NCBI GenBank assembly: GCA_963817235.1
Contig: CAWFNS010000006.1
Coordinates: forward strand, 204,163 to 268,162
From: an uncultured Actinomycetes bacterium
Lineage (GTDB): Bacteria > Actinomycetota > UBA4738 > HRBIN12
Length of the DNA: 64,000 bases
Direction: 5' to 3'
Shown here in pieces: positions 221 through 42,644 of the stretch (its first letter is position 1; each line of letters starts with the position of its first letter). The notes beneath the pieces were generated by a model, which had not been told where the DNA came from, searched no databases, and was given only the letters and a program-made list of their open reading frames with translations. Made by a program: the position numbers and the translations under genes.

Positions 221-265
221 TTGTCTACCGACCGGTAGATAATGCATCATCTACCACGTGGTAGA
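221..265 (+). promoter_or_regulatory. Promoter/operator module 1 upstream of the acyl-CoA reductase gene
   Basis: -35-like TTGTCT at 221-226. Palindrome TCTACCGACCGGTAGA at 224-239. -10-like CATCAT at 245-250. Perfect palindrome TCTACCACGTGGTAGA at 250-265, which covers the GTG start at 258. Near-identical module at 3109-3152. Confidence 0.6.
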
Positions 266-2540
266 GAACCGGGGCTCGATCGTCCAGGCGCTGGCCGGCA
301 AGCGCGTCTTCCTGACCGGCGTGACCGGCTTCCTCGGGCAGGTGATCCTCGAGCGGCTCCTCTTGGACTTCCCCGAGACCGCCGTGACGGTGCTCGTTCG
401 CTCGCAGACCTCCGCCTCCGCCGAGGAGCGGCTCCACTACCTGACGCGCAAGCCGGCGTTCGACGCGCTCCGCGCGCGTCTGGGCGGCGACGATGCGTTG
501 CTGCGGCTGCTGGACGACCGGGTGTCGGTCGTCGACGGCGACTTCACGCAGGGGGAGCCCTCGCTGCCGGCCGGCATCGACGTCGTGATCCACTCCGCCG
601 CGACGGTGAGCTTCGATCCGCCGATCGACGACGCGTTCCGGACGAACGTCCTCGGCGCGCAGAACCTGTATCGGGGCGTCCTCGCGGCCGGGAACGCGCC
701 GCACCTGGTCCACGTCTCGACGGCGTACGTCGCCGGCGTGCAGAAGGGCGTGATCCCGGAGGGGCCGCTGGAGCACCGGGTGGACTACGCCGTCGAGGCC
801 GAGATGGCGATGCGCGCCCGCTCCGAGGTCGAGCTCCAGTCGCGCAAGCCGGAGATGCTCGAGCACTTCATGGCGCGCGCCGCGAAGGATCACTCGCGCG
901 CCGGGCCGAACACGGTCTCGACCGATGCGGAGGAGCGACGGAAGGCCTGGGTCGACGCGCGGCTGATCGAGTACGGGCGGATGCGGGCGCGCACGCTCGG
1001 GTGGCCCGACGTGTACACGTTCACGAAGGCGATGGGCGAGCGGGCCGTGGAGGATCTGGCGCACGCCGAGGGCCTGAGCCTGTCGATCGTCCGTCCGAGC
1101 ATCATCGAGTCGGCGCTGGCGCACCCCGCGCCCGGGTGGATCGACGGGTTCAAGATGGCGGACCCGATCATCCGCGCCTACGGCCTGGGCCAGATCCCCG
1201 AGTTCCCCGGTATCCCCGAGGGCATCGTCGACCTGATCCCGGTCGACTACGTCGTGAACGCGATCGTCGCCGTGGCGGCGTCGCCGCCGCCGCGCGGCGA
1301 GCCCGCGCACTACAACGTTTCGAGCGGCGACCGGAACCCCCTGCGGTTCTTCGAGCTGTACGAGTACGTCCGCGAGTACTTCGAGGCGCATCCTCTCCCC
1401 GAGCGGGGTCGCGGCGAGCACAAGGTGCCGACCTGGGACTTCCCCGGCGACCTGACCGTCGAGCGCATGCTCCGCCGCGCGGAGCGCTTCACCGATCTGG
1501 CCGAGAAGGTCGTGACGCACCTGCCGAAGTCGAAGGCGATGCGGGACGCCGTCACCCGGGTGGACCGCGACAAGGCGCGTGTGGACTTCGTGAAGCGGTA
1601 CTCCGATCTCTACGGGATGTACACCGAGACCGAGGTCGTCTACACGGACGAGCGCGTCGTCGCGCTCTGGAGCGGTCTGTCCGACGAGGACCGGGCGCGG
1701 TTCCCGTTCGACGCCGGCGTGCTCGACTGGAAGCACTACCTCCAGGACGTGCACTGTCCGGCGGTGACGCAGTCGCTCCGGGAGCTGTCGCGCAAGGACC
1801 GGGAGAAGCCGACGGTCACGATCCGGCGCGCCGACGAGCCGGCCCTCGCGGTGTTCGACATGGAGGGAACCATCATCTCCTCGAACGTCGTCGAGTCCTA
1901 CGTGTGGGCGCGCTTCGCCGATCTGGAGGCGAACGAGTGGCCGGCCGAGCTCGTGAGCGTGTTCGGGCGGATCCCCGGCTACCTCCAGACCGATCGCCGC
2001 GACCGGGGCGACTTCCTGCGGACGTTCTTCCGCCGCTACGAGGGGGCGAGCGTCGAGCAGCTCGACCGCCTGATCGACGGTCACGTCGCCGAGTTCATGC
2101 TCCAGAAGGCCTCGCCGGCCGCGATCCGCCGCGTCCGCGAGCACCGCGCGGCCGGCCATCGCACCATCATGATCACCGCCGCCGCGGAGCCGTTCGTCCG
2201 GCCGCTCGCGCCGCTGTTCGACGTGCTGATCGGCGCGGAGCTCGAGGAGCGCGACGGCCGGTACACCGGGTTCATGTCGCAGCCGCCGCTCGTCGGGGAG
2301 GCGAGGGCCGCCTGGTTGCGACGGTACGCCCAGCAGGAGGGCGTGGATCTGCGACGGTCCTTCGCGTACGCCGACTCGTACTCGGACCTGCCGCTGCTGC
2401 GCGCGGTCGGACATCCCGTCGCCGTGTCGCCGGACTCGCAGCTGTACCGGTTCGCCCGTCGTCGGCGCTGGCCGATCGAAGAGTGGGCGATGTCGAAGGG
2501 CATGCCGAAGGTGCGCTTCCCGAAGCCGGCCGTCCGCTAG
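258..2540 (+). CDS. Fatty acyl-CoA reductase (NAD_binding_4/SDR-type) fused to a C-terminal HAD-IB (SerB-like) hydrolase domain
   Basis: 760-aa ORF. Rossmann motif FLTGVTGFLG and YTFTK (YxxxK) in the N-terminal ~400 aa. The C-terminal ~250 aa begins with HAD motif I-like FDMEGTI and ends with YADSYSDLPLL (HAD motif IV-like). Confidence 0.8.
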   Translation: MVENRGSIVQALAGKRVFLTGVTGFLGQVILERLLLDFPETAVTVLVRSQTSASAEERLHYLTRKPAFDALRARLGGDDALLRLLDDRVSVVDGDFTQGEPSLPAGIDVVIHSAATVSFDPPIDDAFRTNVLGAQNLYRGVLAAGNAPHLVHVSTAYVAGVQKGVIPEGPLEHRVDYAVEAEMAMRARSEVELQSRKPEMLEHFMARAAKDHSRAGPNTVSTDAEERRKAWVDARLIEYGRMRARTLGWPDVYTFTKAMGERAVEDLAHAEGLSLSIVRPSIIESALAHPAPGWIDGFKMADPIIRAYGLGQIPEFPGIPEGIVDLIPVDYVVNAIVAVAASPPPRGEPAHYNVSSGDRNPLRFFELYEYVREYFEAHPLPERGRGEHKVPTWDFPGDLTVERMLRRAERFTDLAEKVVTHLPKSKAMRDAVTRVDRDKARVDFVKRYSDLYGMYTETEVVYTDERVVALWSGLSDEDRARFPFDAGVLDWKHYLQDVHCPAVTQSLRELSRKDREKPTVTIRRADEPALAVFDMEGTIISSNVVESYVWARFADLEANEWPAELVSVFGRIPGYLQTDRRDRGDFLRTFFRRYEGASVEQLDRLIDGHVAEFMLQKASPAAIRRVREHRAAGHRTIMITAAAEPFVRPLAPLFDVLIGAELEERDGRYTGFMSQPPLVGEARAAWLRRYAQQEGVDLRRSFAYADSYSDLPLLRAVGHPVAVSPDSQLYRFARRRRWPIEEWAMSKGMPKVRFPKPAVR

Positions 2541-3049
2541 CCGTCCTCCGGCTCGGCCAACTCCGGCACCAGCTCGGCCGGGTCGTCGCCCAGGAGGTAC
2601 CGGGCGCTCGTGCCCTTCGTGGCGGCGATGTCCTGCGGGTTGTAGAGGCCGCACGTCTGCAACGAGAGGCAGCCGCAGCCGATGCAGCTCGTCAGCTCGT
2701 CCCGGAGCCGCTCGAGCGTGCCGATCCGCTCGTCCAGCTCGCCCCGCCACGAACGGCTGAGCTTGGCCCACTGCGCCTTCGTCGGTGCCCGGTCGGGCGG
2801 CAAGGTCGCGAGGGCCGCCGCCACCTCCTGGAGCGACATGCCCATCCGCTGCGCGATCCGGATGAACGCGACGCGACGGAGCACGTGCCGGGGGTAGACG
2901 CGGTGGCCGCCGCTGGTCCGTTCCGAGCGGATCAGCCCGAGCGACTCGTAGAAGCGCAGGGCCGACGTCGCGACGTCGCTGCGGGCCGCGACCTCGCCGA
3001 TCGAGAGCCCGTCGTTCGGAGACTTCGGCTCGGTGGCGGTGCTTCGCAT
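2537..3049 (-). CDS. soxR: SoxR-type MerR-family redox-sensing transcriptional regulator
   Basis: MerR HTH IGEVAARSDVATSALRFYESLGLI, plus the C-terminal [2Fe-2S] cysteine signature CIGCGCLSLQTCGLYNP. Confidence 0.9.
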   Translation of the reverse strand: MRSTATEPKSPNDGLSIGEVAARSDVATSALRFYESLGLIRSERTSGGHRVYPRHVLRRVAFIRIAQRMGMSLQEVAAALATLPPDRAPTKAQWAKLSRSWRGELDERIGTLERLRDELTSCIGCGCLSLQTCGLYNPQDIAATKGTSARYLLGDDPAELVPELAEPEDG

Positions 3050-3108
3050 GTGATAGCAATCCTAAAGTTCCCTCGAGGTTTGTCCCGGGTCGAGGAAAGA
3101 CTTGCTAC

Positions 3109-3152
3109 TTGTCTACCAACCGGTAGAGATGCATAATCTGCCACATGGTAGA
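3109..3152 (+). promoter_or_regulatory. Promoter/operator module 2 upstream of the ADH operon
   Basis: -35-like TTGTCT at 3109-3114. Palindrome TCTACCAACCGGTAGA at 3112-3127. -10 CATAAT at 3132-3137 (17-bp spacer). Palindrome TCTGCCACATGGTAGA at 3137-3152, which covers an ATG at 3145. Confidence 0.6.
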
Positions 3153-3189
3153 CAAAGGCTCGGGGGCGCTCGCGGGGCGAGAGTCGTGA
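3145..3189 (+). other. Possible leaderless 14-codon mini-ORF (MVDKGSGALAGRES) coupled to the ADH start
   Basis: The ATG at 3145 sits 7-8 nt after the -10 box. The stop TGA at 3187-3189 overlaps the GTG at 3186-3188 (GTGA). The first codons (ATG GTA GAC) mirror the start of the reductase gene (GTG GTA GAG). It could instead be the true ADH start, disrupted by an indel. Confidence 0.3.
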
Positions 3190-4404
3190 CGACCCTTGCG
3201 CTGGAGTACTTCCGTAGCGTGCCCCGATACGTTGGCGCCCGAACCGTCGGCGCGAAAGCCCCGGGGTTGATCGCCGGACCGCTCGCGCCGCTCCGCCTGG
3301 CGCAGATCAAGGATCCCGCCCCGCCGAAGGGCCGCGACGGCTGGGTGCGCGTGAAGCCGGTCCTGTCCGGCATCTGCGGCAGCGATCTGTCGACCCTGGC
3401 CGGGCGCTCCTCGTTCTACTTCTCGCCGCTCGTGTCGACGCCGTTCGTCCCCGGCCACGAGGTGGTCGGCGAGCTCCTCGACGCGGTCGACGACATCCCC
3501 GTGGGCGGCCGCGTCGTGCTCTCGTCGGTGCTGGGATGCGAGGCTCGCGGCGAGGACCCGCTCTGCCCGAACTGCGCGGCCGGCGACGTCGGCCGCTGCG
3601 ACCGCGTCACCGTCGGGCACCTGAAGCCCGGCCTGCAGACCGGCTACTGCGCGCAGACGGGCGGCGGCTGGAGCCGGCAGTTCGTCGCGCATCGCTCGCA
3701 GCTCCACGCGGTCCCCGACGCGACCTCGGACGAGGCCGCCGTGCTGGTCGAGCCGTTCGCGTGCGCGATCCACGCCGCGCTCCGTGCCCGGATCGAGCCG
3801 GGGCAGACCGTCGTGATCGTCGGGGCCGGGACCGTCGGGATCCTCACGCTCATCGCGGTGCGGCTGCTCACGCAGCCGGGACAGGTCATCGTCGCCGCGA
3901 AACATCCGAAGCAGCGCGCGGCCGCGCGTCTGGCCGGCGCGGACGAGGTCGTGCTTCCCGCGCACACGGCGAAGGCCGTGCGGCGGGTCAGCAGCGCGGT
4001 GAAGCTCACGCCGGAGCGCGGCCAGGACTTCCTGCTCGGCGGCGCCGACGTGGCGATCGAGTGCGTCGGCTCTCGCGGCGGACTCGATCTGGCGCTGCGG
4101 ACGGTCCGGGCCGGCGGCCGTGTGGTCGTGAGCGGCATCCCCGGCGCCGGCGCGGATCTCACGCCGCTGTGGTTCCGCGAGCTCGAGCTGGTCGGCGCGT
4201 ACACCTCCGGCACGGAGACCATGCCCGACGGATCGCGCGTGCGGACGTTCGATCTGGCGCTCGGCGCGGCCGGGAACCTGCCCGGTGCTCGAGCAGCTGG
4301 TCGGGGCCACGTATCCGCTGGACCGGTGGCGCGAGGCGATCGACCACGCGATGTCCGCCGGGAAGCTCGGCACGTTCAAGGTGGCGTTCGCGCCGCAGGG
4401 ATAA
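3186..4404 (+). CDS. Zinc-dependent medium-chain alcohol dehydrogenase/reductase (frame disruption near 4275-4295)
   Basis: Motifs GICGSD, PGHEVVGE, the structural-Zn cluster CEARGEDPLCPNCAAGDVGRC, and Rossmann GAGTVG. The C-terminus LEQLVGATYPLDRWREAIDHAMSAGKLGTFKVAFAPQG is in another frame and ends at TAA 4402-4404. Confidence 0.8.
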
Positions 4405-4420
4405 GGAGAGCCGCAGACAG

Positions 4421-6011
4421 ATGCCCAGACCAGGGTTCGTGTTGGAGGTGGACGAGCGGACGCCGCCCTTGATCGTCCACGAGGGCGAGGGCTACCGGAT
4501 GCAGCGGTTCCCGCTGGGCACGCGCGTCGTGTACCCGCCGGATCCGCTGCCGGGCCTGCGCGACCTCAACGCGCAGATCCGTCGCGCGCTGCTCGAGCCG
4601 GCCGGCGATCAGGAGCCGCTGCCCGAGCTGTTGTTCGCGGGGATGAAGCTCACGATCGCGGTCGACGACCTCTCGGTCCCGCTGCCGCCGATGGTGACCC
4701 CGGACGTGCGTCAGCGCGTGCTCGAGCACGTGATCGAGCTGGCCGCCCGCGCCGGGGTGGAGGACCTCGAGATCGTCGTGGCGACGGCGCTGCACCGCCG
4801 GATGACGCCCGAGGAGATCCGCCGGATGGTCGGCGAGCGCGTCTACCGCTCCTTCTGGCCCGATCGCCTGTACAACTTCGACGCCGAGGACAAGGACGGG
4901 CTCGCGTACATCGGCCAGACCGACATGGGCGAGGACGTCGAGATCATGAAGCGGGCGGCCGAGTCCGACCTGATCGTCTACGTGAACATCAACCTCGTGG
5001 CGATGGACGGCGGCCACAAGTCGGTCGCGATCGGCCTGGCCAGCTACAAGAGCCTTCGGCACCACCACAACGTGCACACGATGCTCGAGTCGAAGAGCTA
5101 CATGGATCCGCGTCCGGGACACTCGGCGATCAACGACTCGAGCATCCGGATGGGCAGGCTCCTCGCCGCCAACGGCGTGAAGGTGTTCCAGATCGAGACC
5201 ACGGTGAACAGCGAGACCTTCCCGTCGCAGCTCGGGTTCCTCAACAAGCGGGAATGGGAGTGGTCCGTGAAGGACCAGGCCCTGATGATGGCCGCGAAGA
5301 AGGGGAACGACCTCGCGCCGCCGCGCGTGCGGCGGGAGTTCTTCCGTCGGATCGAGGCGTCGTACAAGGTCACCGGCGTCAACGCCGGCGAGGTGGAGGC
5401 GGTCCACGAGCGGACGCTCGAGAACCTGCACCGCCAGCAGCTGGTCGAGGTGAGCGGCCAGTCCGACGTCGTGGTGATGGGGATCCCGTACCTCGGGCCG
5501 TACAACGTCAACTCGATCCTGAACCCGATCCTCGTGCACTGCCTCGGGCTCGGGCTACCTGTTCAACATGTACCGGAACGCGCCGCTCGTGCGCGAGGGC
5601 GGCGTCGCGATCCTGTACCACCCGGTGCCGTGGGAGTTCCACACGATCCACCACCCGAGCTACATCGACTTCTTCGAGGAGGTCCTGGCCGACACGACGG
5701 AGCCGAAGGAGATCGAGGACCGCTACGAGGAGCGGTACGCGACCGACCCCTGGTACACGCACCTGTACCGCACGTCGAACGCGTATCACGGCGTGCACCC
5801 GTTCTACATGTGGTACTGGGGCGCGCACGGCCGGGACCACTGCGGCAGCGTGATCTTCGTCGGCGGCGAGCCGAAGACGGTGGCGCGCCTGGGCTACCGC
5901 CGCGCCGACTCGCTCCGCGACGCGTTGGAGATGGCGAAGGACACCGTGGGCTCGTCGCCGTCGATCACGTACTTCCACGCGCCGCCGATCATGATCGCCG
6001 ACGTCCGGTAG
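4421..6011 (+). CDS. LarA-like (DUF2088, nickel-pincer-dependent racemase/epimerase family) protein (frame disruption near 5535-5565)
   Basis: The internal ATG at 4421 of ORF 3536..6193 (MPRPGFVLEV...) joins ORF 5568..6011. Motifs ATALHRR and MDGGHKS...RHHHNVH resemble the catalytic His, the cofactor-tethering Lys and the Ni-ligand His of LarA. Confidence 0.7.
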
Positions 6012-6015
6012 AGCG

Positions 6016-6925
6016 ATGGGCGCGCGCGACGAACTGCAGGAGATGGCCCGGGGGTTCCGGTGGGGGCGCCGACCCCTGGTGCCGCGCTCGGCCGAGCCGT
6101 ACACCGAGGAGCGTGAGGACGGAGGGTTCCCGACGGACTGGGCCCGGACCGCGGGCGGCGTCGCCGCGCGACAGGCGATCCTCCAGGGGTTGATGCATCC
6201 GCTCGTGAAGAACGAGCTGTCGCTCCGGGTCTACGGTCTCGACCGGCTGCGCGACGTGCGCGGCCCGGTGATCTTCTACTCGAACCACTCGAGCCACCTG
6301 GACGCGACGCTGATCATGTGCACCCTGCCCGACCGGTTCCAACGCAAGACGGCCGTCGGCGCCGCGCGCGACTACTTCTTCGACGTGTGGTGGCGGCAGG
6401 CGTTCACCGCGCTCGTGTTCGCCGCGTTCCCGATCGATCGCGGTCGCGGCGGCCAGGGCGCGATCGACAAGGCCCGGGAGCTCGTCCGCGACGACTGGTC
6501 CATCGTGGTCTTCCCCGAAGGCACGCGATCGCCGGACGGGCATCTCCAACGGTTCCGGCACGGGGCGGCGCGCCTCGCGCTGGAGCTGGAGGTCCCGTGC
6601 GTGCCGATCGCGATCGTCGGCGCGTTCCAGGCGATGCCGAAGGGCAAGTGGTGGCCGCGGGAGGGCCGGCCGGTCGTGACCATCCGCTACGGGGAAGCGA
6701 TCGAGGCCACAGACGGCCGAGACGCACCAGTCGCTGTCGTTGCGGATGCAGCAGGCCGTGGCGCAGCTGTTCGACGAGGATCGGACGTCGTGGTGGGAGG
6801 CGATCGGTCGTGCCGACCGCGGTGAGACGCCGTCGCTCGCGGGGCCGTCCGGTTCGGCCTGGCGCCGCACGTGGGAGGGGACGCGGCCGGTGGCGCGCCG
6901 CGGCGAGCCGAAAGCCTGGCGATAG
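6016..6925 (+). CDS. plsC: 1-acyl-sn-glycerol-3-phosphate acyltransferase family (PlsC/AGPAT-like) (frame disruption near 6695-6740)
   Basis: NHSSHLD (HX4D) and FPEGTRS acyltransferase motifs. The C-terminal part (MQQAVAQLFDEDRTSWWEAI...) is in ORF 6740..6925. Confidence 0.8.
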
Positions 6926-6929
6926 CCGC

Positions 6930-7544
6930 ATGCCGCGGACGGGGGGAGAGCGCCGCCGAACCACGATCATCGAAGAGGCGATCCGACAGTTCGGGCGGGA
7001 CGGGTTCAAGGGCGCGTCGCTCGAGCACATCGCGCAGGCGGTCGGGGTCCGCAAGCAGACGCTCCTGTACTACTTCCCCACGAAGGACGCGTTGCTCGAG
7101 GCCTGCTTGACGGCCGCCGGCGATCGGCTCGCGGCCGACATCGGCGCCGCGCTCGCGGACGCCGAGTCGTATTGGGAGAAGGCGGAGGCGGTGATCCACG
7201 CCGTCTTCCGGCTGGCGGCGGACTGGCCCGAGTTCCCGATGTTCGTGCGTGAGGCCGGTCGCTTGGGACCGGAGGCGTTCGACCGGTTCGCGGCCGTGAT
7301 CGATCCGCTCCGCGAGCGCGCGATCGGCTTCCTGCAGACCGGGATGGACGGCGGGGAGATCCGGAAACAGGACCCGGCGATGCTGCTGTTCACGCTCTAC
7401 ACCGCGGTCGTCGGGGCGCTCACCGAGGCATCGGTGCTGAACGCGGTCGTGGGCAACGATGAGAGCCGTGCGTCACTGAAGCGGCGGGAGATCGAGACGC
7501 TGGCGTTCGTCCGGGCGGCGATGCGCCCGCCGGCTCAGGAGTAG
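6930..7544 (+). CDS. TetR-family transcriptional regulator
   Basis: Internal ATG of ORF 6318..7544. N-terminal HTH IIEEAIRQFGRDGFKGASLEHIAQAVGVRKQTLLYYFPTKDALL. It starts 5 nt after the acyltransferase stop, so it is the last gene of the operon. Confidence 0.85.
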   Translation: MPRTGGERRRTTIIEEAIRQFGRDGFKGASLEHIAQAVGVRKQTLLYYFPTKDALLEACLTAAGDRLAADIGAALADAESYWEKAEAVIHAVFRLAADWPEFPMFVREAGRLGPEAFDRFAAVIDPLRERAIGFLQTGMDGGEIRKQDPAMLLFTLYTAVVGALTEASVLNAVVGNDESRASLKRREIETLAFVRAAMRPPAQE

Positions 7545-8137
7545 AACTCGACGATCAACCGCTCTTCGAGCGGGACCGGCAGCGGGATCTCGTCGCGCTC
7601 GGGGAGACGCGACAGCGTGCCCGAGACCTCGTCCTTGTTCCGGTACAGGTAGACGGGCGGGTCGGGCGTGATCTCGAGCGCCTCGCGGACCGGGATGAAG
7701 TTCCGGGCCTTCTCCGACACCGTGATCGTCTGGCCGGGCTTGACCTGGGCGCTCGGGACGTCCGTGCGACGGCCGTCGATCGAGACGTGGCCGTGGGAGA
7801 CGAGCTGGCGCGCTTGGGGGGTCGACAGGGCGAACCCGAGCCGGAGGCAGACGGTGTCCAGCCGGGTCTCGAGCTGCCGCAGGAGCTCCTCGCCCGTCAC
7901 GCCCGTCCGGGACGTGGCGCGCTCGAAGTAGCGACGCATCTGCTTCTCGTTCACCCGGTAGATCGCCCGCAGCTTCTGCTTCTCCAGCAGGCGCGTCTGG
8001 TACTCGGAGATCCGCTTGCGACCGCGGCCGTGCTGGCCGGGCGGGTAGGGACGCTTGTTGGCGGGGCAGTTGGGGCGGCCGCACAGGGGCGCGCCGACGC
8101 GCCTGCAGGTGCGGTGCTTGGGTCCGGTCTTGTTCAT
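7535..8137 (-). CDS. rpsD: 30S ribosomal protein S4
   Basis: Starts at M63 of ORF 7535..8323: MNKTGPKHRTCRRVGAPLCGRPNCPANKRPYPPGQHGRGRKRISEYQTRLLEKQKLR... Contains an S4 domain (LDTVCLRLGFALSTPQARQLVSHGHVSIDG). Confidence 0.93.
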   Translation of the reverse strand: MNKTGPKHRTCRRVGAPLCGRPNCPANKRPYPPGQHGRGRKRISEYQTRLLEKQKLRAIYRVNEKQMRRYFERATSRTGVTGEELLRQLETRLDTVCLRLGFALSTPQARQLVSHGHVSIDGRRTDVPSAQVKPGQTITVSEKARNFIPVREALEITPDPPVYLYRNKDEVSGTLSRLPERDEIPLPVPLEERLIVEFYS

Positions 8138-8189
8138 GCGGACGCCAAGGCTACCAGAGGATCCATGGCTGTGACCTGCGACGATGCGG

Positions 8190-11100
8190 TCAGCCGGCCG
8201 CCAGGACCGCCGCCGCCTCGGGGGCTGCGCGGACGACGGCGGCGTGCTCGGGCGTGAGCGTCGCGATCCACGTCTCCAAGATCTCGCTGGGCTCCGCGGC
8301 GTTGGCTGAACCCGCGTCGGCATCGTCGCCCGCGGTATAGGCGCACCGGGAGCGCGCGGCCCACGCCTGCCAGCGAGGCGTCACGCCGCCCAGTTGCTCG
8401 GCCAGCTCCGTGGCGATCTTGAACTCGGCGAGTCCCTCCTCCCGCCGGCCGAGGGTCACCAACGCCTCGCCCAGCAGCACCCGGGCCGCCGATTCGTACT
8501 TCGGTCGCGTCGCTCGTCGCGCGCGCTCGATCGCGTCGAGCGCCGAGCTCGCCGTCGCGCCGGCGTCCTCCGCTTCGCGAGCGATCTGCGTGCGGACCAA
8601 GGCGAGGCGGCAGCCGCCGTTCCACGGGCGCCAGGCCTTGCCGTTGATCGCGGCATCCCACAGCTCCGGCCATCCGCGTTGCGCGGCGCCGACGTCGCCA
8701 TCCATCAGGTCGGCGAGGAGCAGATCGATCCTGCCTTGGAGGAGCGGCATCCCCCATTCGCCGTGCGTCTGGACCAGTTCGACCGCCGCCTCGTTGCGCC
8801 GGCGGGCCTCGTCGACGAGGAACAGATCGCGATACCCCATCGAGGAGTAGTTCAGCGGCGCCGCTCCCCAGCGAGGCACCCCCAGCTCCTGCGCCTGCGC
8901 GACGATCCGCTCGAGGATGTCGAGGCCATCCTCGGTGCGCCCCATCGCGAGGAGCGTCAGGCCGTGCCACGCGCCTCCGCGGACGAGCGGCTCCACGGCG
9001 TGGGTCGCACCGCCGACGTCGAAGACCTGCCGCGAGAGCTCCTCCGATCGCGCGTAGTCGCCCATCCAGTACGCGCACTCGAACAGCGCCTCCTCGGCAA
9101 GCGCGAAGCGGCTCGGCCGGCTGCCGGCGACGCGGAGCTCGAGCGCGCGTTCGCCGGTGGCGACGGAGTCCGGCAGGACGCCGGCGTTGAGGCCGGCGAG
9201 ACTCAGGCAGGCGAGGGCTGCCGCCGTCTGGTCGCGGTCGCCGACCGCCTCCGCCCGTTCGACGGCGCGGTGTGCGATCTCCTCCGCGGCCGGATCCTCG
9301 AGCCACGTCGCGGACCAGCCGAGGACCAGCAGCGCCTCGACCTCGTCCTTGCCGGCGAGCCGCGGGAGGATGTCGTGCACCTCGGACGTGACGGTCTCGA
9401 ATTCGCTGAGCTCGACCATGATCATCGCCCGGCGGAGCCGGATCCGATCCGCCGTCGCTTGGTCGTCGGAGGCGAGCTCGACCGCCTGATCGAGCAGCGC
9501 CACGGCCTCGTCGCTGGCCCACGACTCCGCCGCGCGCTCGGCCGAGATCAGCAGGTACTCAACGGCCTTCGCGCTCTCGCCCGCCTCCCGCCAATGGTGG
9601 GCAAGCAACCAGGAGAGTTCCCGCCGCCTGCCCAGATCGCGATGCTCGATGTAGCCGGCGATGCTCGCGTGGCGCTCCCGCCGGACGGCCTTGGGAAGGG
9701 TCCCGTAGGCGACCTCCCGGATCAGCATGTGGCGGAACGAATACTCGACGTCGCCCGCGACCTGGCTGCGCGGCTCCCGTCGGATCAGGTCCCGCGCCTC
9801 CAACGTGTCGAGGCGGTCATCGAGGTCCGGATCCGGATGGATCGCGCCGAGCACGCCTGCCCAGAAGGTGCGCCCGATCACCGACGCATCGAGGAGCGCG
9901 GCCCGGGGTTCGACGGGCAGCAGATCGATCCGCGAGGCGATCGCCTCCCGGACCGCGGTGGGCAGGACGCGGTCCTCGCCCGGGCGATCGGTCATGGACG
10001 CCGCCAGTTCCTCGATGAACAGCGGGTTCCCGCCGGAGACCTCGACGATCTTGCCGATCGCCGGGTCCGCGCCACCGCCGAGGACGGCGGCCGCGATCGC
10101 CGAGGCGTCCTCGGTCGAGATCGGACCCAGGGGGATCGTCGTCTGCGGGATCATCCCTCCGCCCCAGGACCGACCCGCGGCGGCGGCCTCCGGTCGGGTG
10201 AGCATCAGGAACACCACGGGGACGTCCCGAACGCGCTCCGCGAGGTGTTCGATCAACTCGAGCTGGCTGGCCCCTGCCCAATGGATGTCCTCGAACCGGA
10301 GCATCCCGGGCCGCACCGCCCCCCAGCCTTCGATGAAGCGCCGCATGGCGTAGAACAGCTGGGTCCGGTCGTCGGTCGGCGCGTCCTCGCCGAGGCCCAG
10401 GAGCAGCGACAGGTACCGGGTGACGTCGGCCGCCTCTTCTGCGGGCAGGAGCTCGGCGACCGACGACGCGAGCTTCGCTCGGGCGACGCCGCCCGGGTCG
10501 CTCTCGAGGATCCCGGCGATCGAACGGATCTGTTCGCTCGACGCGGGATAGCCGGCGACCTCTTCGTACGGCAGACAGCGACCGCTCGCCGAGCCGGCCC
10601 CCTCCGCATCGACGCGCCGCAGGAACCCGCGGGACAGCCGTGATTTCCCGATGCCCGGGGGACCGAGGATCGTGACGACGTGCGGCCGGCGCTCCTCGCG
10701 CACGGTGGCCCAGACCGACGCGAGCTGGTCCATCTCGCGGTCGCGACCGATCAGCGGCGTCCGATCCGAACCCACCGACCCCGTGTCGGACGCACCGAGG
10801 GCGATCCAGGCGGCGACCGGCTCGCGTTTGCCTTTCGCGTCGATCGCCTCGATCGGCTCGTACCGGATCGTGCGCCGCGTTGCGCGGTAGGTCTCGGCGC
10901 CGACGATCACGCCGCCGGGCGGCGCCGCTCCCTGGAGCCGCGCCGCCGTGTTGATCACGTCGCCGGTGGCGAACGCCTCGCCCAGCTCGGGCCGGGCCGA
11001 GACGGCGACCAACGCCTCGCCCGTGTTCACCGCCGCCCGAGCTTGCAGCTGCAGACCGGGGTGCTCGGCGTTCAGCTCGCCGATCGCCTCCAGCACGCGC

Positions 11101-11432
11101 AGCCCAGCTCGGACCGCCCGCTCCGCGTCGTCGCCGTGGGCGACGGGCGCACCGAACACGGCCACCACGGCGTCCCCGATGAACTTCTCGACGGTCCCTC
11201 CGAACCGCTCGAGCTCGTCGCGGGCCCGCTCGTGGTACCAGCGCAGCTCTTCCCGGACCTCCTCGGGGTCGGCGTCCTCGGCCCGCGCCGTCGAGCCGAC
11301 CAGATCGACGAACAGCGCCGATACGAGCTTGCGCTCATCGGTCGTCGCGGCACGTGCCAGCTCGACCCCGCAGGACTGGCAGAACCGCGCGTCATCTCCG
11401 TTGTCGTGGCCGCACCGTGGGCACGCCGGCAT
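8190..11432 (-). CDS. Zinc-ribbon / class III adenylate-guanylate cyclase / STAND (AAA) ATPase / TPR-like multidomain protein
   Basis: 1080 aa. N-terminal CPRCGHDNGDDARFCQSCG. Cyclase homology domain (LFVDLVGSTARAE...KFIGDAVVAVFG). P-loop ILGPPGIGKSRL. Long helical-repeat C-terminus with no recognisable HTH output. Confidence 0.85.
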   Translation of the reverse strand: MPACPRCGHDNGDDARFCQSCGVELARAATTDERKLVSALFVDLVGSTARAEDADPEEVREELRWYHERARDELERFGGTVEKFIGDAVVAVFGAPVAHGDDAERAVRAGLRVLEAIGELNAEHPGLQLQARAAVNTGEALVAVSARPELGEAFATGDVINTAARLQGAAPPGGVIVGAETYRATRRTIRYEPIEAIDAKGKREPVAAWIALGASDTGSVGSDRTPLIGRDREMDQLASVWATVREERRPHVVTILGPPGIGKSRLSRGFLRRVDAEGAGSASGRCLPYEEVAGYPASSEQIRSIAGILESDPGGVARAKLASSVAELLPAEEAADVTRYLSLLLGLGEDAPTDDRTQLFYAMRRFIEGWGAVRPGMLRFEDIHWAGASQLELIEHLAERVRDVPVVFLMLTRPEAAAAGRSWGGGMIPQTTIPLGPISTEDASAIAAAVLGGGADPAIGKIVEVSGGNPLFIEELAASMTDRPGEDRVLPTAVREAIASRIDLLPVEPRAALLDASVIGRTFWAGVLGAIHPDPDLDDRLDTLEARDLIRREPRSQVAGDVEYSFRHMLIREVAYGTLPKAVRRERHASIAGYIEHRDLGRRRELSWLLAHHWREAGESAKAVEYLLISAERAAESWASDEAVALLDQAVELASDDQATADRIRLRRAMIMVELSEFETVTSEVHDILPRLAGKDEVEALLVLGWSATWLEDPAAEEIAHRAVERAEAVGDRDQTAAALACLSLAGLNAGVLPDSVATGERALELRVAGSRPSRFALAEEALFECAYWMGDYARSEELSRQVFDVGGATHAVEPLVRGGAWHGLTLLAMGRTEDGLDILERIVAQAQELGVPRWGAAPLNYSSMGYRDLFLVDEARRRNEAAVELVQTHGEWGMPLLQGRIDLLLADLMDGDVGAAQRGWPELWDAAINGKAWRPWNGGCRLALVRTQIAREAEDAGATASSALDAIERARRATRPKYESAARVLLGEALVTLGRREEGLAEFKIATELAEQLGGVTPRWQAWAARSRCAYTAGDDADAGSANAAEPSEILETWIATLTPEHAAVVRAAPEAAAVLAAG

Positions 11433-12475: not shown

Positions 12476-13700
12476 ATGGCCGAGATCCAGGTCTACGGCG
12501 CCAGCTGGTGCCCCGATTGCCGGCGAGCGAAGAAGTTCCTGTCGGACCAGCGGGTCGCGTTCGACTGGCACGACATCGACGGCGACGAGGCCGGGATCCG
12601 CGAGGTCGAGGCCCGCAACGACGGGAGGCGGATCATCCCGACGATCGTGTTCGGCGACGACTCGCACCTGGCCGAGCCCTCGAACGAGGAGCTTGCCGAC
12701 AAGCTCGGCCTGGCCCGTTCCGCGATGCAGCACGTGTACGACCTCGTGATCGTCGGCGGCGGGCCCACCGGCCTCACGACCGCGATCTACGCGGCGCGCG
12801 AGAACCTCGAGACGCTCGTGATCGACTCGAAGGGCCTGGGTGGGCAGGCGGGGGTGACCGAGCGCCTGGACAACTATCCGGGGTTCCCCGAAGGGATCGG
12901 CGGCGCCGAGCTGGCAGACCGGTTCGTGAAGCAGGCCGAGCGCTACGGCGTCGAGCTGCTCCAGGCGGTCAGCGTCACGGCGATCACGGACGAGGGGCAT
13001 CGCGAGCTGGACGTCGAGACCGCGACCGGCGACCACTACCACGCGCGCGCGGTGCTGATCGCGACCGGCTCGAGCTACCGGCGGACCGACGCCGAGGGCG
13101 AGGACGAGCTGATCGGCGCCGGCGTGCACTTCTGCGCCACGTGCGACGGCCCCTTCTACAGAGGGTCGAGCGAGTTGCTCGTGATCGGCGGCGGGAACTC
13201 GGGGCTCGAGGAAGGGCTCTTCCTCACCCAGTTCACGGACATGGTGGTCGTGGTCGAGCGCGGCGACCGCTTGCGCGGCTCCAAGCTCCTGCAGGACAAG
13301 GTCCTGCACCACGCGAAGATGGACGTGCTGCTCGAGCACGGCGTGACGGCGTTCCGCCCGAAGGACGGCGGCTCCGGCAAGCTGGGGACGGTCGAGCTCG
13401 AGGACCTCCGCACGGGCGCTCGCTCGGAGCGGCACCCCGACGGCGTGTTCGTGTTCATCGGGCTCGATCCGAACACGGGGTTCCTCGGCGAGCGGATCGC
13501 GCTGGACGACCGGCGCTTCGTCGCCACCGACGCGACGTTCATGACGAGCGTGCCGGGGGTGTTCGCGGCCGGCGACGTCCGAGGAGGCTCCACGAAGCAG
13601 CTCGCCTCGGCGGTCGGCGAGGGCGCGGCCGTCGCGATCCAGATCCGCGGCTACCTCGACCGGCTCGACCGCGAGCGTCGACGAAGGGATGGGCGCATGA
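12476..13700 (+). CDS. Glutaredoxin-like (CPDC) domain fused to thioredoxin-disulfide reductase
   Basis: M13 of ORF 12440..13981. N-terminal MAEIQVYGASWCPDCRRAKKFL. FAD motif VIVGGGPTGLTTA. Redox-active FCATCDG. NADPH motif VIGGGNSGLEE. The 3' end is inferred from a TGA at 13698-13700 in the +1 frame, which overlaps the next ATG. Confidence 0.8.
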
Positions 13701-13981
13701 CCCCTGCGGAGATCTTCGACCTGATCATCAAGGCCGACGAGAAGCTGAAGTACTCGACCGAGGCGAACATGGAGCTGCGACGGTCGCAGGCGATCGAGCT
13801 GTTGCTCCAGGCGCGCACCGAAGCGCAGGCCGCCGGCGTCGAGCAGCTGGTGCAACAGGCGGAGACGCGGCTGACGGACCTGGGCGTCGACCCGCGGCGA
13901 ACTAGCCGCCGGCGTTCCAGCCGCGGAACGCCGTCCAGCAGCGTCGCCGACTGGTGCGCGGGCTCAGATCCGCTTCGGTGA
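13697..13981 (+). CDS. Small conserved hypothetical helical protein (MTPAEIFDLIIKADEKLKYSTEANMELRRSQAIELLLQARTEAQAAG...)
   Basis: The ATG at 13697 forms an ATGA overlap with the probable reductase stop. The 3' end is uncertain because it overlaps the convergent anti-sigma gene from 13902. Confidence 0.4.
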   Translation: MTPAEIFDLIIKADEKLKYSTEANMELRRSQAIELLLQARTEAQAAGVEQLVQQAETRLTDLGVDPRRTSRRRSSRGTPSSSVADWCAGSDPLR

Positions 13982-14161
13982 GCTCGCCGGTGAGCCGGAT
14001 CGTCTCGCGGAGCTCGTCGAGGATCATCGAACAGCCGTCGCACGACGCGAGGTGGGCCTCGACGCGCGCGCGGTGCGGCGCGGGAAGCTCGCCGTCGAGG
14101 AAGTCGCTCAGCAGCTCGACGACCTCGCGGCAGGTGATCTGGCCGGCTTCGAGCTGCTCAT
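13902..14161 (-). CDS. Small soluble zinc-binding anti-sigma factor (ZAS, RsrA-like) (frame disruption within the first codons)
   Basis: Not in the ORF track. The ATG at 14161 overlaps the sigma stop (ATGA). After a 1-nt shift the frame reads EQLEAGQITCREVVELLSDFLDGELPAPHRARVEAHLASCDGCSMILDELRETIRLTGELTEADL... with C-x26-H-x3-C-x2-C spacing. Stop TAG at 13902-13904. Confidence 0.65.
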
Positions 14162-14808
14162 GCTTGGCTCACGCTCCGGAAGTGCTCCTCGATCGCACGG
14201 CGGACGCGGGCGCGCGCCCGGTGCAGGAGCACCCGTTGATTGGTCTCGCTCAGGTCGAGCGCGTTACGGACCTCCTCCGAGGACCAGCCCTGGACGTCCC
14301 GGAGCCGGATCACCTCGGCCTGCAGCGGGGGGAGCGCGGCGATCGCGCGACCGATCACGCGGATCGTCTCGGATCCCTCCGCGCGCTGCTCCGGCATGCC
14401 GCGCCAGTCGAACGGGAGCGTCGACCAGCTGCCCGCGGCCGGATCGTCGGCGCCGCGGAACGCGCTCGGGTCGATCGAGGGCTCGTCGAGGTCGTCGCCG
14501 GCGAGCGTCGCGAACGGCACGCTCCGACCCTCCCGCTGGCCCCTCGTCTTCGCGATGTTCACGAGGATCCGGAAGATCCACGTCCGCAGCGTCGAGCGTC
14601 CCTCGAACGACCCGAGTCCACGGAGGACCCCGACCCACGCGTCCTGGACCACCTCGTCCGCGACCGCGTCGGTGGACACGTACATCCGGGCGACCCGGCG
14701 CATCGATGGTCCGAGCGCGGTGACGAGCATCATGAAGGCGTCCTCGTCGCCGGCGCGGAGGCGCGCGACCAACTCGAGATCGGTGGGAGAGATGGACGGA
14801 GCCGCCAC
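14158..14808 (-). CDS. ECF-type RNA polymerase sigma-70 family factor
   Basis: 216 aa. Region 2 (DEVVQDAWVGVLRGLGSFEGRSTLRTWIFRILVN) and region 4 (LQAEVIRLRDVQGWSSEEVRNALDLSETNQRVLLHRARARVR). Confidence 0.9.
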   Translation of the reverse strand: MAAPSISPTDLELVARLRAGDEDAFMMLVTALGPSMRRVARMYVSTDAVADEVVQDAWVGVLRGLGSFEGRSTLRTWIFRILVNIAKTRGQREGRSVPFATLAGDDLDEPSIDPSAFRGADDPAAGSWSTLPFDWRGMPEQRAEGSETIRVIGRAIAALPPLQAEVIRLRDVQGWSSEEVRNALDLSETNQRVLLHRARARVRRAIEEHFRSVSQA

Positions 14809-14841
14809 GGGCGGCAGCCTAGTCAGGAGCGCCGAAGCAGG

Positions 14842-15917
14842 CTAGGGGCGCATCGCGGCCCAGGGCCGGTCGTAGCCGTAGAGCGAGTCGTACTGGACCT
14901 GACCGCCGGGGCCGGGGTGCCGAGCGTGGATGATGCGTCCCCCGCCGATGTACAGCGCCACGTGCGGGGAGACGTCCCCGTAGTAGACGATGTCGCCGGG
15001 CTGGATCTCGGACAGCGGCACGTGCGGGAGCGACGAGTACTGCTCGTACGCGGAGTGCGGCAGCGAGACGCCGGCGCGGCCCCACGCCCACATCGTCAGG
15101 CCCGAGCAGTCGAAACCGACGTTCGGATCGGCCGCGCCGAAGACGTACTGCGTGCCGACCACCGACGCGGCCGCGGAGATCGCGATCTGGGCGGCCGACG
15201 CGTTCGCGGGCGGGGGCGGGGCGGTCGGCACGTCGGCCGGTGGACCGCTGATGCCGTTCTGCTCCTCGAGCGCCGCCTGGCGGGCGGCGGCTTCCTGGGC
15301 GGCGATCGCGGCGAGCCACTGGTTCCGCTGATCCTGCGAGCTGCAACGCCAGCTGACGCTGCTGTGCCAGGTTCGACTGGATCTGCTCGCGCTCGCTCGT
15401 CATGTCGTTGAGGTGCGCCTGTGCGTCCGAGACCGCCTGCGCGTACTGCTGTGCCGCCCACGTGGCCAGCTGCCCGGCGGCGTCGGCCTTCGTGGCGAGG
15501 TCCGCGTCGGACTGCGCGATCGCGCCGATGAACTCGAGCTTGTCCGAGAATTCCGTGAAGCTTTGCGCGCCAAGCAGGACGTCGAGCGAGGACCCCATGC
15601 CGGTGTAGGTGTTGACGGCGGACTCGGCCAGCTGGGCACGCGCGGTGTCGGCCTGCTTCGCGGCCGAGTCCTTCATCGCCTTCGCGGCCGCGAGATGCGT
15701 CTGCGCCTGCTGGAGCTCGACCTTCGCCGTGTTCCACTTCTCGACGGCCGCCTCGAACTGGTTCTGGAGCTGGGCGAGCTGCCGTCTTCGCGTCCTCGAC
15801 CTGCTGCTTGGACGGCGGCGCCGCCGCGGAGGTCGTGGTGAGCGAGAAGACGAAGGTGGGGACGACGACGAGCGCGGCCAAGATGAGCCGCTTCACTCTC
15901 GTCTGGGTGCCGGTCAT
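14842..15917 (-). CDS. Secreted NlpC/P60 (C40) cell-wall hydrolase with N-terminal coiled-coil, RipA-like (at least 3 frame disruptions)
   Basis: Signal/TM segment MTGTQTRVKRLILAALVVVPTFVFS (M26 of ORF 15096..15992). Coiled-coil part in ORF 14819..15676. Catalytic domain in ORF 14842..15231 (YVFGAADPNVGFDCSGLTMWAW...GDVSPHVALYIG). Confidence 0.8.
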
Positions 15918-16098
15918 CGTCCTCCGAGGGTCGGGATATGGCGAGGGCCCGGTGGGTGTGGTCACCGAGCCCAGCGGGGACACCCTAGCCACCCGGACGA
16001 CGGGGCGTCAAACACGCCCGAACACGTGTTCGCAGGTCGCACGGACGACCTACGGTTCGGGGGCGGCCGCGTTCCGCGGTCCGCCCCCGATCGTTCGG

Positions 16099-16172
16099 GT
16101 CGGGACGGCGGGATTTGAACCCGCGACCTCAGCGTCCCGAACGCTGCGCGCTACCAAGCTGCGCTACGTCCC
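16099..16172 (-). tRNA. tRNA-Pro: tRNA-Pro (anticodon CGG)
   Basis: The reverse strand reads CGGGACGTAGCGCAGCTTGGTAGCGCGCAGCGTTCGGGACGCTGAGGTCGCGGGTTCAAATCCCGCCGTCCCGA. It has a 7-bp acceptor stem, anticodon loop TTCGGGA and a GGTTCAAATCC T-arm. CCA is not encoded. Confidence 0.9.
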
Positions 16173-16197
16173 GAGGCCCAGATTGTAGCCCGCGCGT

Positions 16198-22317: not shown

Positions 22318-24163
22318 CTACCGGGCCGGCGCGCGCGGGAAGCGGAGGTCGCCGTCGCGCCGCGTCACGCCCTGACGATCGAGGTACTCGGCGAGCGGCA
22401 CCGCGTACTTCCGGCTGGTGCCCAGGGCTTCGCGGAGGGTGGCGACCGTGAGTCCGTCGTCGGCATGGTCGTACGCGAGCTCGGTGGCGCGCTCGACGAG
22501 CGACGGCGCGACGATCAGCTCGGGCGAGATCCGCACGACGGCGCCGGCGCGCCCCGCCGCGTCCAGGAGCGCGCGAGCGAACCCGGCCGCCACGAGCTCC
22601 TTCACCGTCGGCGGCTGCGCCTCGTGCGGTCCGGAGACGGCGGCGACCAGCTGCTCGACGTCGGCGGCGCGCGGCTCGAGCCGCACCTCGTGCGTGCGCA
22701 GCCGGACCGTCGACCCGGATCGTTCGAGGAGCCCGTCGGCCGCGAGCAGCTCCACGAGGACGTCGGCCACCTCGCGGGGCGGTCGGACACCCGTCGACCG
22801 CGCCGCCCGCAGGACGGCGTCGCGGACGCTCGCGAGCGTCGCCCCCTCTTCCAAGGGGTGGTCGCGGTGGTACGCGCTCAGGAACGTCTCGGCGGCGGCC
22901 GCGGCCGCGTCGCGGACGGTCGCCGAGACGCACCAGCCGGCCGCTCCCGGGGGCGGCGGGCCGCCGGTGAGGACCGCGATGTCGTCGGCGCGCACGGCCC
23001 CTCGCTCGTCCACGAGGAGCGCCGGCAGTTCGGTGCGATCCGCGACGGCCCGCCGGGCCAAGAACCCGAGGTGCCGGGGATCGGCCGCGCGCACGGGCGG
23101 CGCGACGTCCAGCACCTCGCCGCCGCCGACCGTGATCCGGCGACCGACCTCGCGCAGCACGTAGCGATCGAACACGTCCAGCACCAGCGGCCTCGCGGTG
23201 CGGATCCGGACGAAGCGCTCCCCGCTCGGTCCCTCGAGGAACCGAACCTTCGCCTCGGTCTCGGCGGCGCCGGCGTGCACCATGAAGGCGCCGCGGGTGG
23301 GGATGCCCCGCGCGAGGCCCCGGATCGCCCGGATCGTGCCGTCGAACGTCGTCGTCGGCCGCCACGCGCCCGGCGAGGCCAGGACGTCGCCGCGTTCGAG
23401 ACGATCGCGGTCGGCCCCGACGAGGTTCGCTGCCACGCGCGAGACGGGGCACGCGCGGTCCTCCTGTTCCTTGTGGGTCTGGAGGCCGCGGATCCGGGCT
23501 CGCTCGCCGTTCGGATACAGCTCGACTCTCCTCGCCGGTCTGCAGGCAGTCGCCGGTGAGCGTCCCGGTCGCGACCGTGCCCGCCCCTTTGATCGCGAAG
23601 ATCCGATCCACGAACAGCCGCGTCCTCGCGTCTTCGGGGGCGGGCGCCTCCGCGATCGCCCGGTCGAGCGCCGCGATCAGGTCCGGCACGCCCTCGCCGG
23701 TCTGCGACGACACCGCGACGATCGGCGAGGCCTCGAGCGCGGTGCCCGCGACCTGTTCGCGCACCTCGTCGTGCGCGATGGACAGCGTCTCCTCGTCGAC
23801 CAGATCGCGTTTCGTGAGGGCGATCACCCCACCCGCCACCCCGAGCACGTCGAGGATCTGCAGGTGCTCCTCCGATTGGGGCTTCCATCCCTCGTCGGCC
23901 GCGACCACGAACAGGACGAGGCGCACCGGCCCGACCCCGGCGAGCATGTTGCGCACGAAGCGTTCGTGTCCCGGCACGTCGACGAACCCGATCTCCCGGC
24001 CGCTCGGGAGGGTGCACCACGCGTACCCGAGGTCGATCGTGAGCCCCCGCCGCTTCTCCTCGGCCCAGCGATCGGGGTCGATGCCGGTGAGGCGGACGAT
24101 CAGCGACGACTTGCCGTGATCGACGTGCCCGGCGGTGGCGATCACGCGGAGCTCTCCGGCCAC
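22318..24163 (-). CDS. selB: Selenocysteine-specific translation elongation factor SelB (frame disruption near 23527-23535)
   Basis: GTG at 24163. G-domain [26 protein letters not shown]. Domain II is in another frame ([21 protein letters not shown]...). Winged-helix C-terminus in ORF 22318..23436 ending [19 protein letters not shown]. Confidence 0.85.
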
Positions 24164-24165
24164 GC

Positions 24166-25556: not shown

Positions 25557-25591
25557 GGCCGGAGCCTACCGCGGTAAGATGCCGCACACTG

Positions 25592-41036: not shown

Positions 41037-41196
41037 CAGGTCGCCAGTCTCTCATGAGGTCCGACCCGGGTGTTCGTCGAGGCCGATCGCATGCTTGTCA
41101 CTCTTTCCACCGCGCTCGTATTGCCTGTGGATTGGAACACGGCGTAGAACTTCGATGCAGAGAGGGCGCCGCGTGACGCGGACGGGGAGGGGGCCC

Positions 41197-42606: not shown

Positions 42607-42644
42607 ATCAATCGCGGACGAGGGCAAGCGCCTCGCATAGTCAG

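Follow-up and report, generated by a model that had tools for sequence, protein, structure and literature searches.

A TetR-linked actinobacterial gene cassette with a LarA homologue as a possible re-shuffled variant of the myxobacterial elb ether-lipid cluster

The closest genetically studied counterpart of the locus considered here is the elbABCDE operon of Myxococcus xanthus (MXAN_1531 to MXAN_1527; Lorenzen et al. 2014, as reviewed in PMC9131029). When elbD is disrupted, most ether lipids of the alkyl and vinyl types are lost; the route is largely independent of MXAN_1676, a homologue of alkylglycerone-phosphate synthase (AGPS), and ElbC is described in the ether-lipid literature as a protein of unknown function (PMC9131029). 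In the survey of LarA homologues (LarAH) by Desguin et al. (2020, PMC7583248), MXAN_1529 is listed in group 15, the Myxococcota sister of group 14; since elbABCDE spans MXAN_1531–1527, MXAN_1529 is elbC, and group 15 was not connected there with the elb operon. Group 14 was labeled as of “unknown function” and its neighborhood was given only as a supplementary table (Table S1), with COG0204 (AGPAT), COG0560 (HAD), and COG1063 (Zn-dependent alcohol dehydrogenase, Zn-ADH) at 88% and COG3320 (thioester reductase) at 50%, and the purified Frankia LarAH14, Franean1_4168, was inactive in seven alpha-hydroxyacid reactions (PMC7583248). A 2026 paper recognizes hydroxy-acid racemization/epimerization as the only chemistry of the LarA family and treats the single-His homologues as being of unknown function. 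The locus analyzed here occupies positions 221–7544 of a 64-kb window (the whole stretch of DNA under study, from contig CAWFNS010000006.1 of an uncultured Actinomycetes bacterium; ~71% G+C, with a strong third-position bias) and encodes a fatty acyl-CoA reductase (FAR) fused to a HAD-IB domain, a Zn-ADH, a LarA homologue, an AGPAT/PlsC-type acyltransferase, and a TetR repressor. In our estimate, the chances are about even that this region is an actinobacterial, TetR-repressed, and re-shuffled variant of the elb cluster.

That the cassette is a conserved unit with homology to elb can, on the comparisons made, be regarded as virtually assured. The LarA-like protein aligns with ElbC at 47.5% identity over 524 aa (E 1e-177), the FAR domain with residues 8–541 of ElbD at 31% over 546 aa (E 2e-52), the HAD domain with ElbB at 31% (E 6e-29), and the acyltransferase with residues 1266–1399 of ElbD at 38% (E 1e-25). 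ElbC passes the NCBIfam model NF052592 for LarAH14/15/16 (848.8 bits, cutoff 740), as does the frame-corrected LarA-like protein of the window (882.5 bits, positions 1–520 of 520), and ElbB passes the HAD-IB model TIGR01490, as does the window HAD domain. Within the M. xanthus locus, ElbA and ElbE carry Epimerase domains, ElbB is a HAD protein (PF12710), ElbC has Lar_N, and ElbD combines NAD_binding_4, Sterile, AMP-binding, PP-binding, and Acyltransferase domains. On the strength of these matches, ElbC is a member of the nickel-pincer LarA family, a link that appears to be unremarked in the literature searched, in which (the original 2014 elb paper being outside it) no paper contained both “lactate racemase” and “ether lipid”.

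The extent of conservation was assessed by scanning a genome collection with the LarA-like protein, which brought up at least 598 relatives; the top 80 (62–90% identity) were compared as loci. The FAR, HAD, and ADH coding regions lie in this order, on the same strand, and directly upstream of the LarA-like gene in 68 of the 69 loci with enough upstream flank, the exceptional locus having the same genes with ~850 bp inserted, and the acyltransferase gene is found downstream in all 79 loci with enough downstream flank. A TetR gene follows the acyltransferase in 19/72. An earlier, sequence-only reading of this DNA, which had proposed one co-regulated gene set for an unusual lipid pathway and had made that proposal depend on the association being kept in other genomes, is upheld by these counts together with the homology to elb. 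All 80 relatives belong to Actinomycetota except L080, a short contig labeled Candidatus Velamenicoccus, and the carriers include Frankia, Actinomadura, Kribbella, Nocardioides, Micromonospora, Actinoallomurus, Acidimicrobiales, and many metagenome-assembled genomes (MAGs). Cassettes of this kind are abundant both in soil metagenomes and in the genomes of Actinomycetota, and a word-based search found thousands of full-length metagenome homologues of the FAR-HAD fusion.

Clustering of the open reading frames (ORFs) in the flanks of the 80 loci, where the filter on third-position G+C (GC3) passed many shadow ORFs, gave no conserved partners beyond the four core genes, TetR (19/72), and larBCE (12/80). 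No transporter, glycosyltransferase, CDP-alcohol transferase, WS/DGAT, AGPS, or 2-hydroxylase recurs in these flanks. The larE, larB, and larC genes, mostly above the NCBIfam cutoffs for LarE, LarB, and LarC, are found no more than 5 kb from the cassette in 12/80 loci from Actinomadura, Thermomonospora, Actinoallomurus, Micromonospora, and some MAGs: at 12619–15498 (−) in L028, with two larB copies, at 6567–8834 (+) in L026, where larE/larB/larC continue the operon directly after the acyltransferase, at ~3900–6100 in L058, and in L029, L030, L036, L039, L050, L051, L059, L070, and L073.

The individual genes, all on the + strand, were identified by domain, as the sequence-only reading had named them, with residue conservation counted over 63 FAR-HAD, 74 ADH, 79 LarA-like, and 76 acyltransferase aligned members. 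The FAR-HAD gene (258..2540) is intact and encodes the 760-aa fusion that had been noticed from the letters, with NAD_binding_4 (E 2e-53) and Sterile/FAR_C at ~1–515 and HAD-IB (PF12710, E 6e-34) at ~530–740, the motifs TGVTGFLG, YTFTK, and DMEGT being at residues 20–27, 253–257, and 534–538. The reductase part has the NAD_binding_4 plus FAR_C architecture and the TGxTGFxG and YxxxK motifs of the alcohol-forming FAR class, with the key G, T, G, F and Y...K residues present in 63/63, and it matches the FAR of PDB 7eoz (E 3e-48 across residues 8–505). In the HAD part, the nucleophile Asp of motif I is invariant and the +2 residue is always acidic, being Asp in 36 members and Glu in 27, so that the D-M-E-G-T of the window, correctly read before as departing from DxDxT, represents a clade-level D/E alternation and not an oddity of this protein; a Glu at this position presumably occurs also in enolase-phosphatase E1. 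The motif II Thr is present in 62/63 members, motif IV (DSxSD) is invariant, and the motif III position, as aligned by eye to the Lys of ElbB, is an invariant Arg.

The ADH (3186..4404) is a polyol-dehydrogenase-type medium-chain dehydrogenase/reductase of 405 aa once an extra C at ~4283 is removed, starting from the GTG at 3186 (the earliest in-frame start would be 3102). Its catalytic Zn ligands (Cys, His, Glu), four structural-Zn Cys, and GxGxxG are invariant in 74/74, and the solved structures closest to it are those of ketose reductase, xylitol and sorbitol dehydrogenases, idonate 5-dehydrogenase, and galactitol-1-P 5-dehydrogenase. The LarA homologue (LarAH14/15/16, ElbC family; 4421..6011) has 529 aa after removal of an extra G at ~5554, and the acyltransferase (6016..6925; NHSSHLD, FPEGTRS) has 302 aa after removal of an extra base at ~6711, matching Pfam Acyltransferase at E 3e-25 and PlsC of PDB 5kym at E 5e-14, with NHxSHxD and (F/Y)PEGTRS kept over the 76 members, in which the H, H, D, P, and R residues never vary. 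The operon ends with the intact gene for the TetR protein (6930..7544; 204 aa; TetR_N E 3e-13). The stop/start pairs 4404/4421, 6011/6016, and 6925/6930 give gaps of 16, 4, and 4 nt; these are the spacings of the tightly packed operon reported before, although the three frameshifts had been overlooked and the spacings hold only once the frame changes in the three genes are bridged.

The LarA homologue is a member of LarAH group 14 as defined by Desguin et al. (2020, PMC7583248), starts with MPRPGFVLEVDERTPP, has Pfam Lar_N (E 9e-40), and shows the group 14 signature of D / Ile-Leu-Val / H / gap / K / H. The DD, LHRR, GGxKS, and HHH motifs (D72, H108, K184, and H200 of L. plantarum LarA) are invariant in 79/79, and the catalytic and cofactor residues align to His115, Lys195, and His221 of 9q2u; the family retains the residues for cofactor linkage (Lys), Ni binding (His), and ribose binding (Asp) as well as the first catalytic His. 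The second catalytic His (equivalent to H174) is deleted or replaced by N-[IV]-N-L, and the carboxylate-binding Arg (equivalent to R75) is Leu, Ile, or Val in 79/79. The protein is presumed to be a nickel-pincer-nucleotide enzyme with a single catalytic His, use of the cofactor being plausible since the ligands are invariant and larBCE adjoins the cassette in 12/80 loci. It probably performs a non-racemizing, hydride-mediated step because both the second catalytic His and the carboxylate-binding Arg are absent, and the loss of the Arg would suit a substrate other than a carboxylic acid.

Among solved structures, those of the group 17 single-His proteins LarA_Sp and LarA_Bw (PDB 9q2u, 9q3k, 9q3j; E 1.5e-21) are the nearest. 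Group 17 resembles the window family in that both domains align, the catalytic His, Lys, and Ni-binding His are present, the second catalytic His is missing, and His and aromatic residues abound in the C-terminal region. It differs in its glycolytic/sugar-phosphate gene contexts and its Asn-Pro-Tyr motif; in the window family, a two-residue deletion accompanies N-[IV]-N-L, the YHGVHPFYMWYW block is invariant, and the surrounding genes are lipid genes. The paralogues that make up group 16 (Frankia, Microlunatus, Propionibacterium) have lost the cofactor Lys and, for the most part, the catalytic His, yet they still stand beside AGPAT and HAD genes. It should be noted that the “LarAH15” of a 2024 JBC paper (PMC11770544) is a Phytophthora D-gluconate 2-epimerase on the GntE branch and not a member of the 2020 group 15; the D-mannonate epimerase result reported under that name was set aside for that reason.

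The control region of the cassette consists of two copies of a promoter/operator module. The first (221..265, + strand), ahead of FAR-HAD, contains a −35 box TTGTCT at 221–226, the palindrome TCTACCGACCGGTAGA at 224–239, a −10 box CATCAT at 245–250, and the palindrome TCTACCACGTGGTAGA at 250–265. The second (3109..3152, + strand), a duplicate of it ahead of the ADH gene, has TTGTCT at 3109–3114, palindromes at 3112–3127 and 3137–3152, and CATAAT at 3132–3137 after a 17-nt spacer, so that both copies have the pattern TTGTCT-N17/18-CAT(A/C)AT bracketed by a pair of palindromes. The 16-bp palindrome TCTACC-N4-GGTAGA occurs in the 64 kb at these four places only, and none of 100 shuffles gave four matches. 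The entire module is kept 5′ of FAR-HAD in distant relatives that have the TetR gene, although the surrounding DNA is not, and it is absent from most relatives without that gene; one copy stands before the ADH gene in L001, the contig of which stops short of the TetR position. These distributions bear out the shared operator module of the sequence-only reading and make it quite likely that the TetR protein is paired with the four palindromes as its operator. It would then occupy the palindromes, which overlap the start site and the −35 box of each promoter, until released by a ligand, probably of a lipidic nature. The FAR-HAD GTG start (258) is within the second palindrome, 7–8 nt past the −10 box, and the FAR-HAD mRNA is therefore probably leaderless. 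A gamma-butyrolactone-type signaling system, with acylation of dihydroxyacetone phosphate (DHAP) and a TetR-type receptor, was considered and rejected, there being no AfsA homologue and the TetR protein scoring 37 bits against a ScbR cutoff of 150.

Between the two halves of the cassette stands soxR (2537..3049, − strand), encoding a MerR-family redox sensor of 170 aa with the cluster motif CIGCGCLSLQTC (TIGR01950, 200.9 bits, cutoff 116.9), which is convergent with the FAR-HAD gene and overlaps it by 4 nt. The sequence-only reading made no mention of this gene, and because of it the operon does not directly follow the fusion gene, contrary to what had been assumed. A search by tblastn found soxR at none of the 80 genome loci; a MerR-family gene (soxR) is at the same position in L081–L084, the closest relatives of the window locus, to which the arrangement is confined and in which a second module copy also precedes the ADH gene. 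From this distribution, soxR is a lineage-specific insertion outside the conserved cassette, and the two modules are most simply explained by duplication of a TetR operator at the time an ancestral operon was split by soxR. In that scenario, soxR would have been inserted between FAR-HAD and ADH and the promoter/operator then duplicated, leaving both halves co-regulated. A SoxR-box-like inverted repeat, TCCTAAAGTTCCCTCGAGGT (3060..3079, no strand assigned), read from the sequence and adjoining the soxR start codon, is kept in L082 and L081, and we take it to resemble the soxS box of E. coli; it seems to lie in the leftward promoter of soxR itself, the transcript of which would be antisense to the FAR-HAD 3′ end.

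In the model proposed here, the product of the cassette is a 1-O-alkyl(-2-acyl)glycerol-type lipid, an assignment by analogy to which we give roughly equal weight for and against. The steps are assigned from the eukaryotic ether-lipid route and elb genetics. The FAR domain would use NADPH to convert acyl-CoA into a fatty alcohol or aldehyde, and the AGPAT-like enzyme, acting as a GNPAT- or AGPAT-type acyltransferase, would acylate either glycerol-phosphate/DHAP at sn-1 as a priming step or 1-alkyl-glycerol 3-phosphate at sn-2. The polyol-type Zn-ADH would interconvert the C2 keto and hydroxyl groups in the manner of alkyl-DHAP reductase, a role that would fall to ElbA and ElbE in Myxococcus, and the HAD-IB domain would remove the phosphate. 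The LarA homologue would carry out a nickel-pincer, hydride-mediated, and non-racemizing step at the secondary alcohol of the backbone, possibly the AGPS-independent formation of the ether bond. This last assignment is made by elimination, as it is the sole enzyme without a step and ether-bond formation is the sole step without an enzyme. Of the three products offered by the sequence-only reading, the 1-O-alkyl (ether) lipid gains support from the homology of four cassette components to elb.

The narrower proposal that LarAH14/15 (ElbC) is the AGPS-independent ether-bond-forming enzyme of bacterial elb-type pathways is tentative and on balance rather unlikely. In such a mechanism, the single-His nickel-pincer enzyme would transiently oxidize the C2 hydroxyl without inversion, the hydride borrowed from C2 of an acyl-glycerol-phosphate allowing the sn-1 acyl group to be exchanged for a fatty alcohol; alternatively, the electrophilic C4 of the cofactor might be used as AGPS uses flavin N5.

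Several observations weigh against the ether-lipid model. No larB, larC, or larE was found by tblastn within the 64-kb window. The short-chain dehydrogenases/reductases ElbA and ElbE of Myxococcus are replaced in the window cassette by a polyol-type Zn-ADH to which nothing in elb corresponds, and AMP-binding and PP-binding domains are neither present in its proteins nor conserved in the flanks of the 80 loci; lacking an acyl-CoA synthetase and an acyl carrier protein (ACP), the cassette would presumably take free acyl-CoA or acyl-ACP as its substrate. No elb step has been reconstituted, purified ElbD showed neither FAR nor AGPAT activity, and the review (PMC9131029) describes no elbC mutant. 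Some sponge-symbiont elb-like clusters keep only elbD and elbB, and an ElbC-type enzyme is thus perhaps not universally needed. Pontiella has ElbD homologues and no ether lipids were found in it, and in the literature searched there is no report of ether lipids in the actinobacterial carrier genera. The points on reconstitution and elbC mutants, on the sponge symbionts, and on ElbD homologues in Pontiella tell equally against an ether-bond-forming role of the LarA homologue.

The best surviving alternative, though unlikely in our view, is that no ether bond is formed and the cassette acts as a module for fatty alcohols, wax esters, or neutral lipids, or for Kennedy-type remodeling. The HAD domain would then be a phosphatidate phosphatase and the acyltransferase a PlsC, with the ADH and the LarA-like protein acting on a soluble polyol-phosphate or hydroxy-acid side substrate. 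Such a module would be in keeping with the actinobacterial HAD-AGPAT fusions that have been proposed, unproven, as phosphatidate phosphatase plus PlsC for triacylglycerol, with the feeding of wax-ester synthesis by FAR enzymes, with the nearness of the ADH to soluble polyol dehydrogenases, and with the sugar-phosphate contexts of the related single-His group 17. However, a WS/DGAT-type wax synthase is not conserved in the flanks of the 80 loci, and the strict linkage of the four genes including the LarA homologue, along with the recurrence of these four families in an ether-lipid operon from an unrelated phylum, argues for one shared pathway rather than a mixture.

A second alternative, which goes back to the sequence-only reading, is that a long-chain 1,2-diol or related lipid is made from a 2-hydroxyacyl intermediate, the LarA-like enzyme racemizing the 2-hydroxy center before or after the reduction by FAR. 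The characterized LarA members do racemize or epimerize 2-hydroxy acids, the FAR and acyltransferase modules suit the assembly of diol lipids, and no long-chain 2-hydroxy acids were among the seven substrates tried on Frankia LarAH14. It is nevertheless improbable, since groups 14 and 15 do not have the second catalytic His needed for proton transfer on two faces, the position of the carboxylate-binding Arg is hydrophobic in every one of the 79 members, and Frankia LarAH14 showed no activity on those seven alpha-hydroxyacids. Moreover, no fatty-acid 2-hydroxylase is conserved among the 80 loci, and elb yields glycerol ethers, not diols. The stereo-inversion of a 2-hydroxyacyl intermediate that had been envisaged for the LarA-like enzyme is accordingly not supported.

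The weakest alternative, that the operon is a decaying pseudogene cluster and the pathway dead in this organism, draws on the three uncompensated 1-nt insertions in adjacent genes, with none in ~8 kb of flanking coding sequence within 1–12.4 kb, and was rejected as very improbable because similar indels recur across the window and the genes are intact in L082. L082, one of the closest relatives, served as the frame reference (FAR-HAD 92% identical; region DNA 84%), and alignment to it places the extra bases at ~4283 in the ADH frame (CCC vs CC), ~5554 in the LarA-like frame (GGG vs GG), and ~6711 in the acyltransferase frame, the first two lengthening CC and GG runs by one base. Its counterparts have 405, 529, and 302 aa, the same lengths as the frame-corrected window proteins, and the codon-position GC bias stays at ≥0.9 past each of the three shifts. 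Frame changes along the window were followed with a GC3/codon-position Viterbi track, the weak strand separation of which led to the sites being rechecked by translation and Pfam. SelA is spread over three frames, with Pfam profile positions 1–47 and 55–366 in different frames, SelB is broken between its GTPase and C-terminal domains (confirmed by Pfam), and a UvrD/AddA-like helicase is broken at Pfam profile positions 194/203. Several related MAGs of one series likewise have match lengths that are not multiples of three; we assume these to be long-read assemblies. Since SelA, SelB, and the helicase are split in the same way and close relatives are intact, it is highly likely that the three cassette frameshifts are assembly indels and not gene decay. 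An assembly this prone to indels needs frame correction before any ORF-based reading of the window.

Other features of the window may be noted briefly. An amidohydrolase looks split by translation, only its N-terminal piece having a Pfam match. Regions of broken frame lie at 22321–25586 (−), 32451–35607 (−), and 46407–47523 (+), and the codon-position track alone places additional frame-change sites at ~15338, 20733/20932, 45845, 53678, and 55574. A tRNA-Pro(CGG) at 16097–16174 (−) is the sole tRNA in the window, and no tRNA-Sec was found there, though selA/selB are present at 22.3–25.6 kb. The stretch 41000–43700 (~2.6 kb) has 58–63% G+C against ~71%; it shows no codon-position signal, matches nothing in Rfam, and is perhaps a foreign or non-coding island. 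Just downstream of rpsD, a gene at 8190–11432 (−), syntenic in L082 and unrelated to the cassette, encodes a 1080-aa protein with zinc-ribbon, adenylate/guanylate cyclase, and AAA_16 domains.

What follows from the comparison is chiefly that a single-His nickel-pincer ElbC offers a concrete candidate for AGPS-free ether-bond formation in the ElbD route and that, for the orphan LarA groups 14 and 15, the lipid context suggests substrates very different from the soluble hydroxy acids assayed to date. If ElbC does form the ether bond, aerobic synthesis of ether lipids in bacteria would require nickel and larBCE and would be widespread in soil Actinomycetota; if alkyl glycerol ethers are made, Actinomycetota would become a candidate source of environmental ether-lipid biomarkers. 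The TetR/operator pair provides a simple genetic handle for derepression.

With respect to the eukaryotic/AGPS route (FAR1, GNPAT, AGPS, alkyl-DHAP reductase, AGPAT, and phosphatidic acid phosphatase), the window cassette has candidates for the FAR, the acyltransferase, the C2 keto-reductase, and the phosphatase, and differs in that the FAD-dependent alkylglycerone-phosphate synthase of that route is absent from it. The literature searched held nothing specific on a characterized FAR-HAD fusion or on a link between DUF2088 and lipids. The statement made before that no characterized pathway has this gene combination does not stand, given that Desguin et al. (2020) list the neighborhood in their Table S1 and that elb has been studied genetically. 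In elb and in the window cassette alike, a FAR1-like reductase, a HAD-IB protein, a LarAH14/15/16 homologue, and an AGPAT-type acyltransferase are encoded together, and neither cluster has an AGPS gene. The two differ in host, Myxococcota for elb and a Gram-positive phylum for the window cassette, in gene order, in the control by TetR and operator that marks the window cassette, and in the partner of the reductase, the FAR being fused to acyl-CoA synthetase, ACP, and AGPAT domains in ElbD and to HAD in the window. The group 14 neighborhood (in the 2020 table) and the elb operon are already known, and the cassette can be read as a variant of elb-type clusters.

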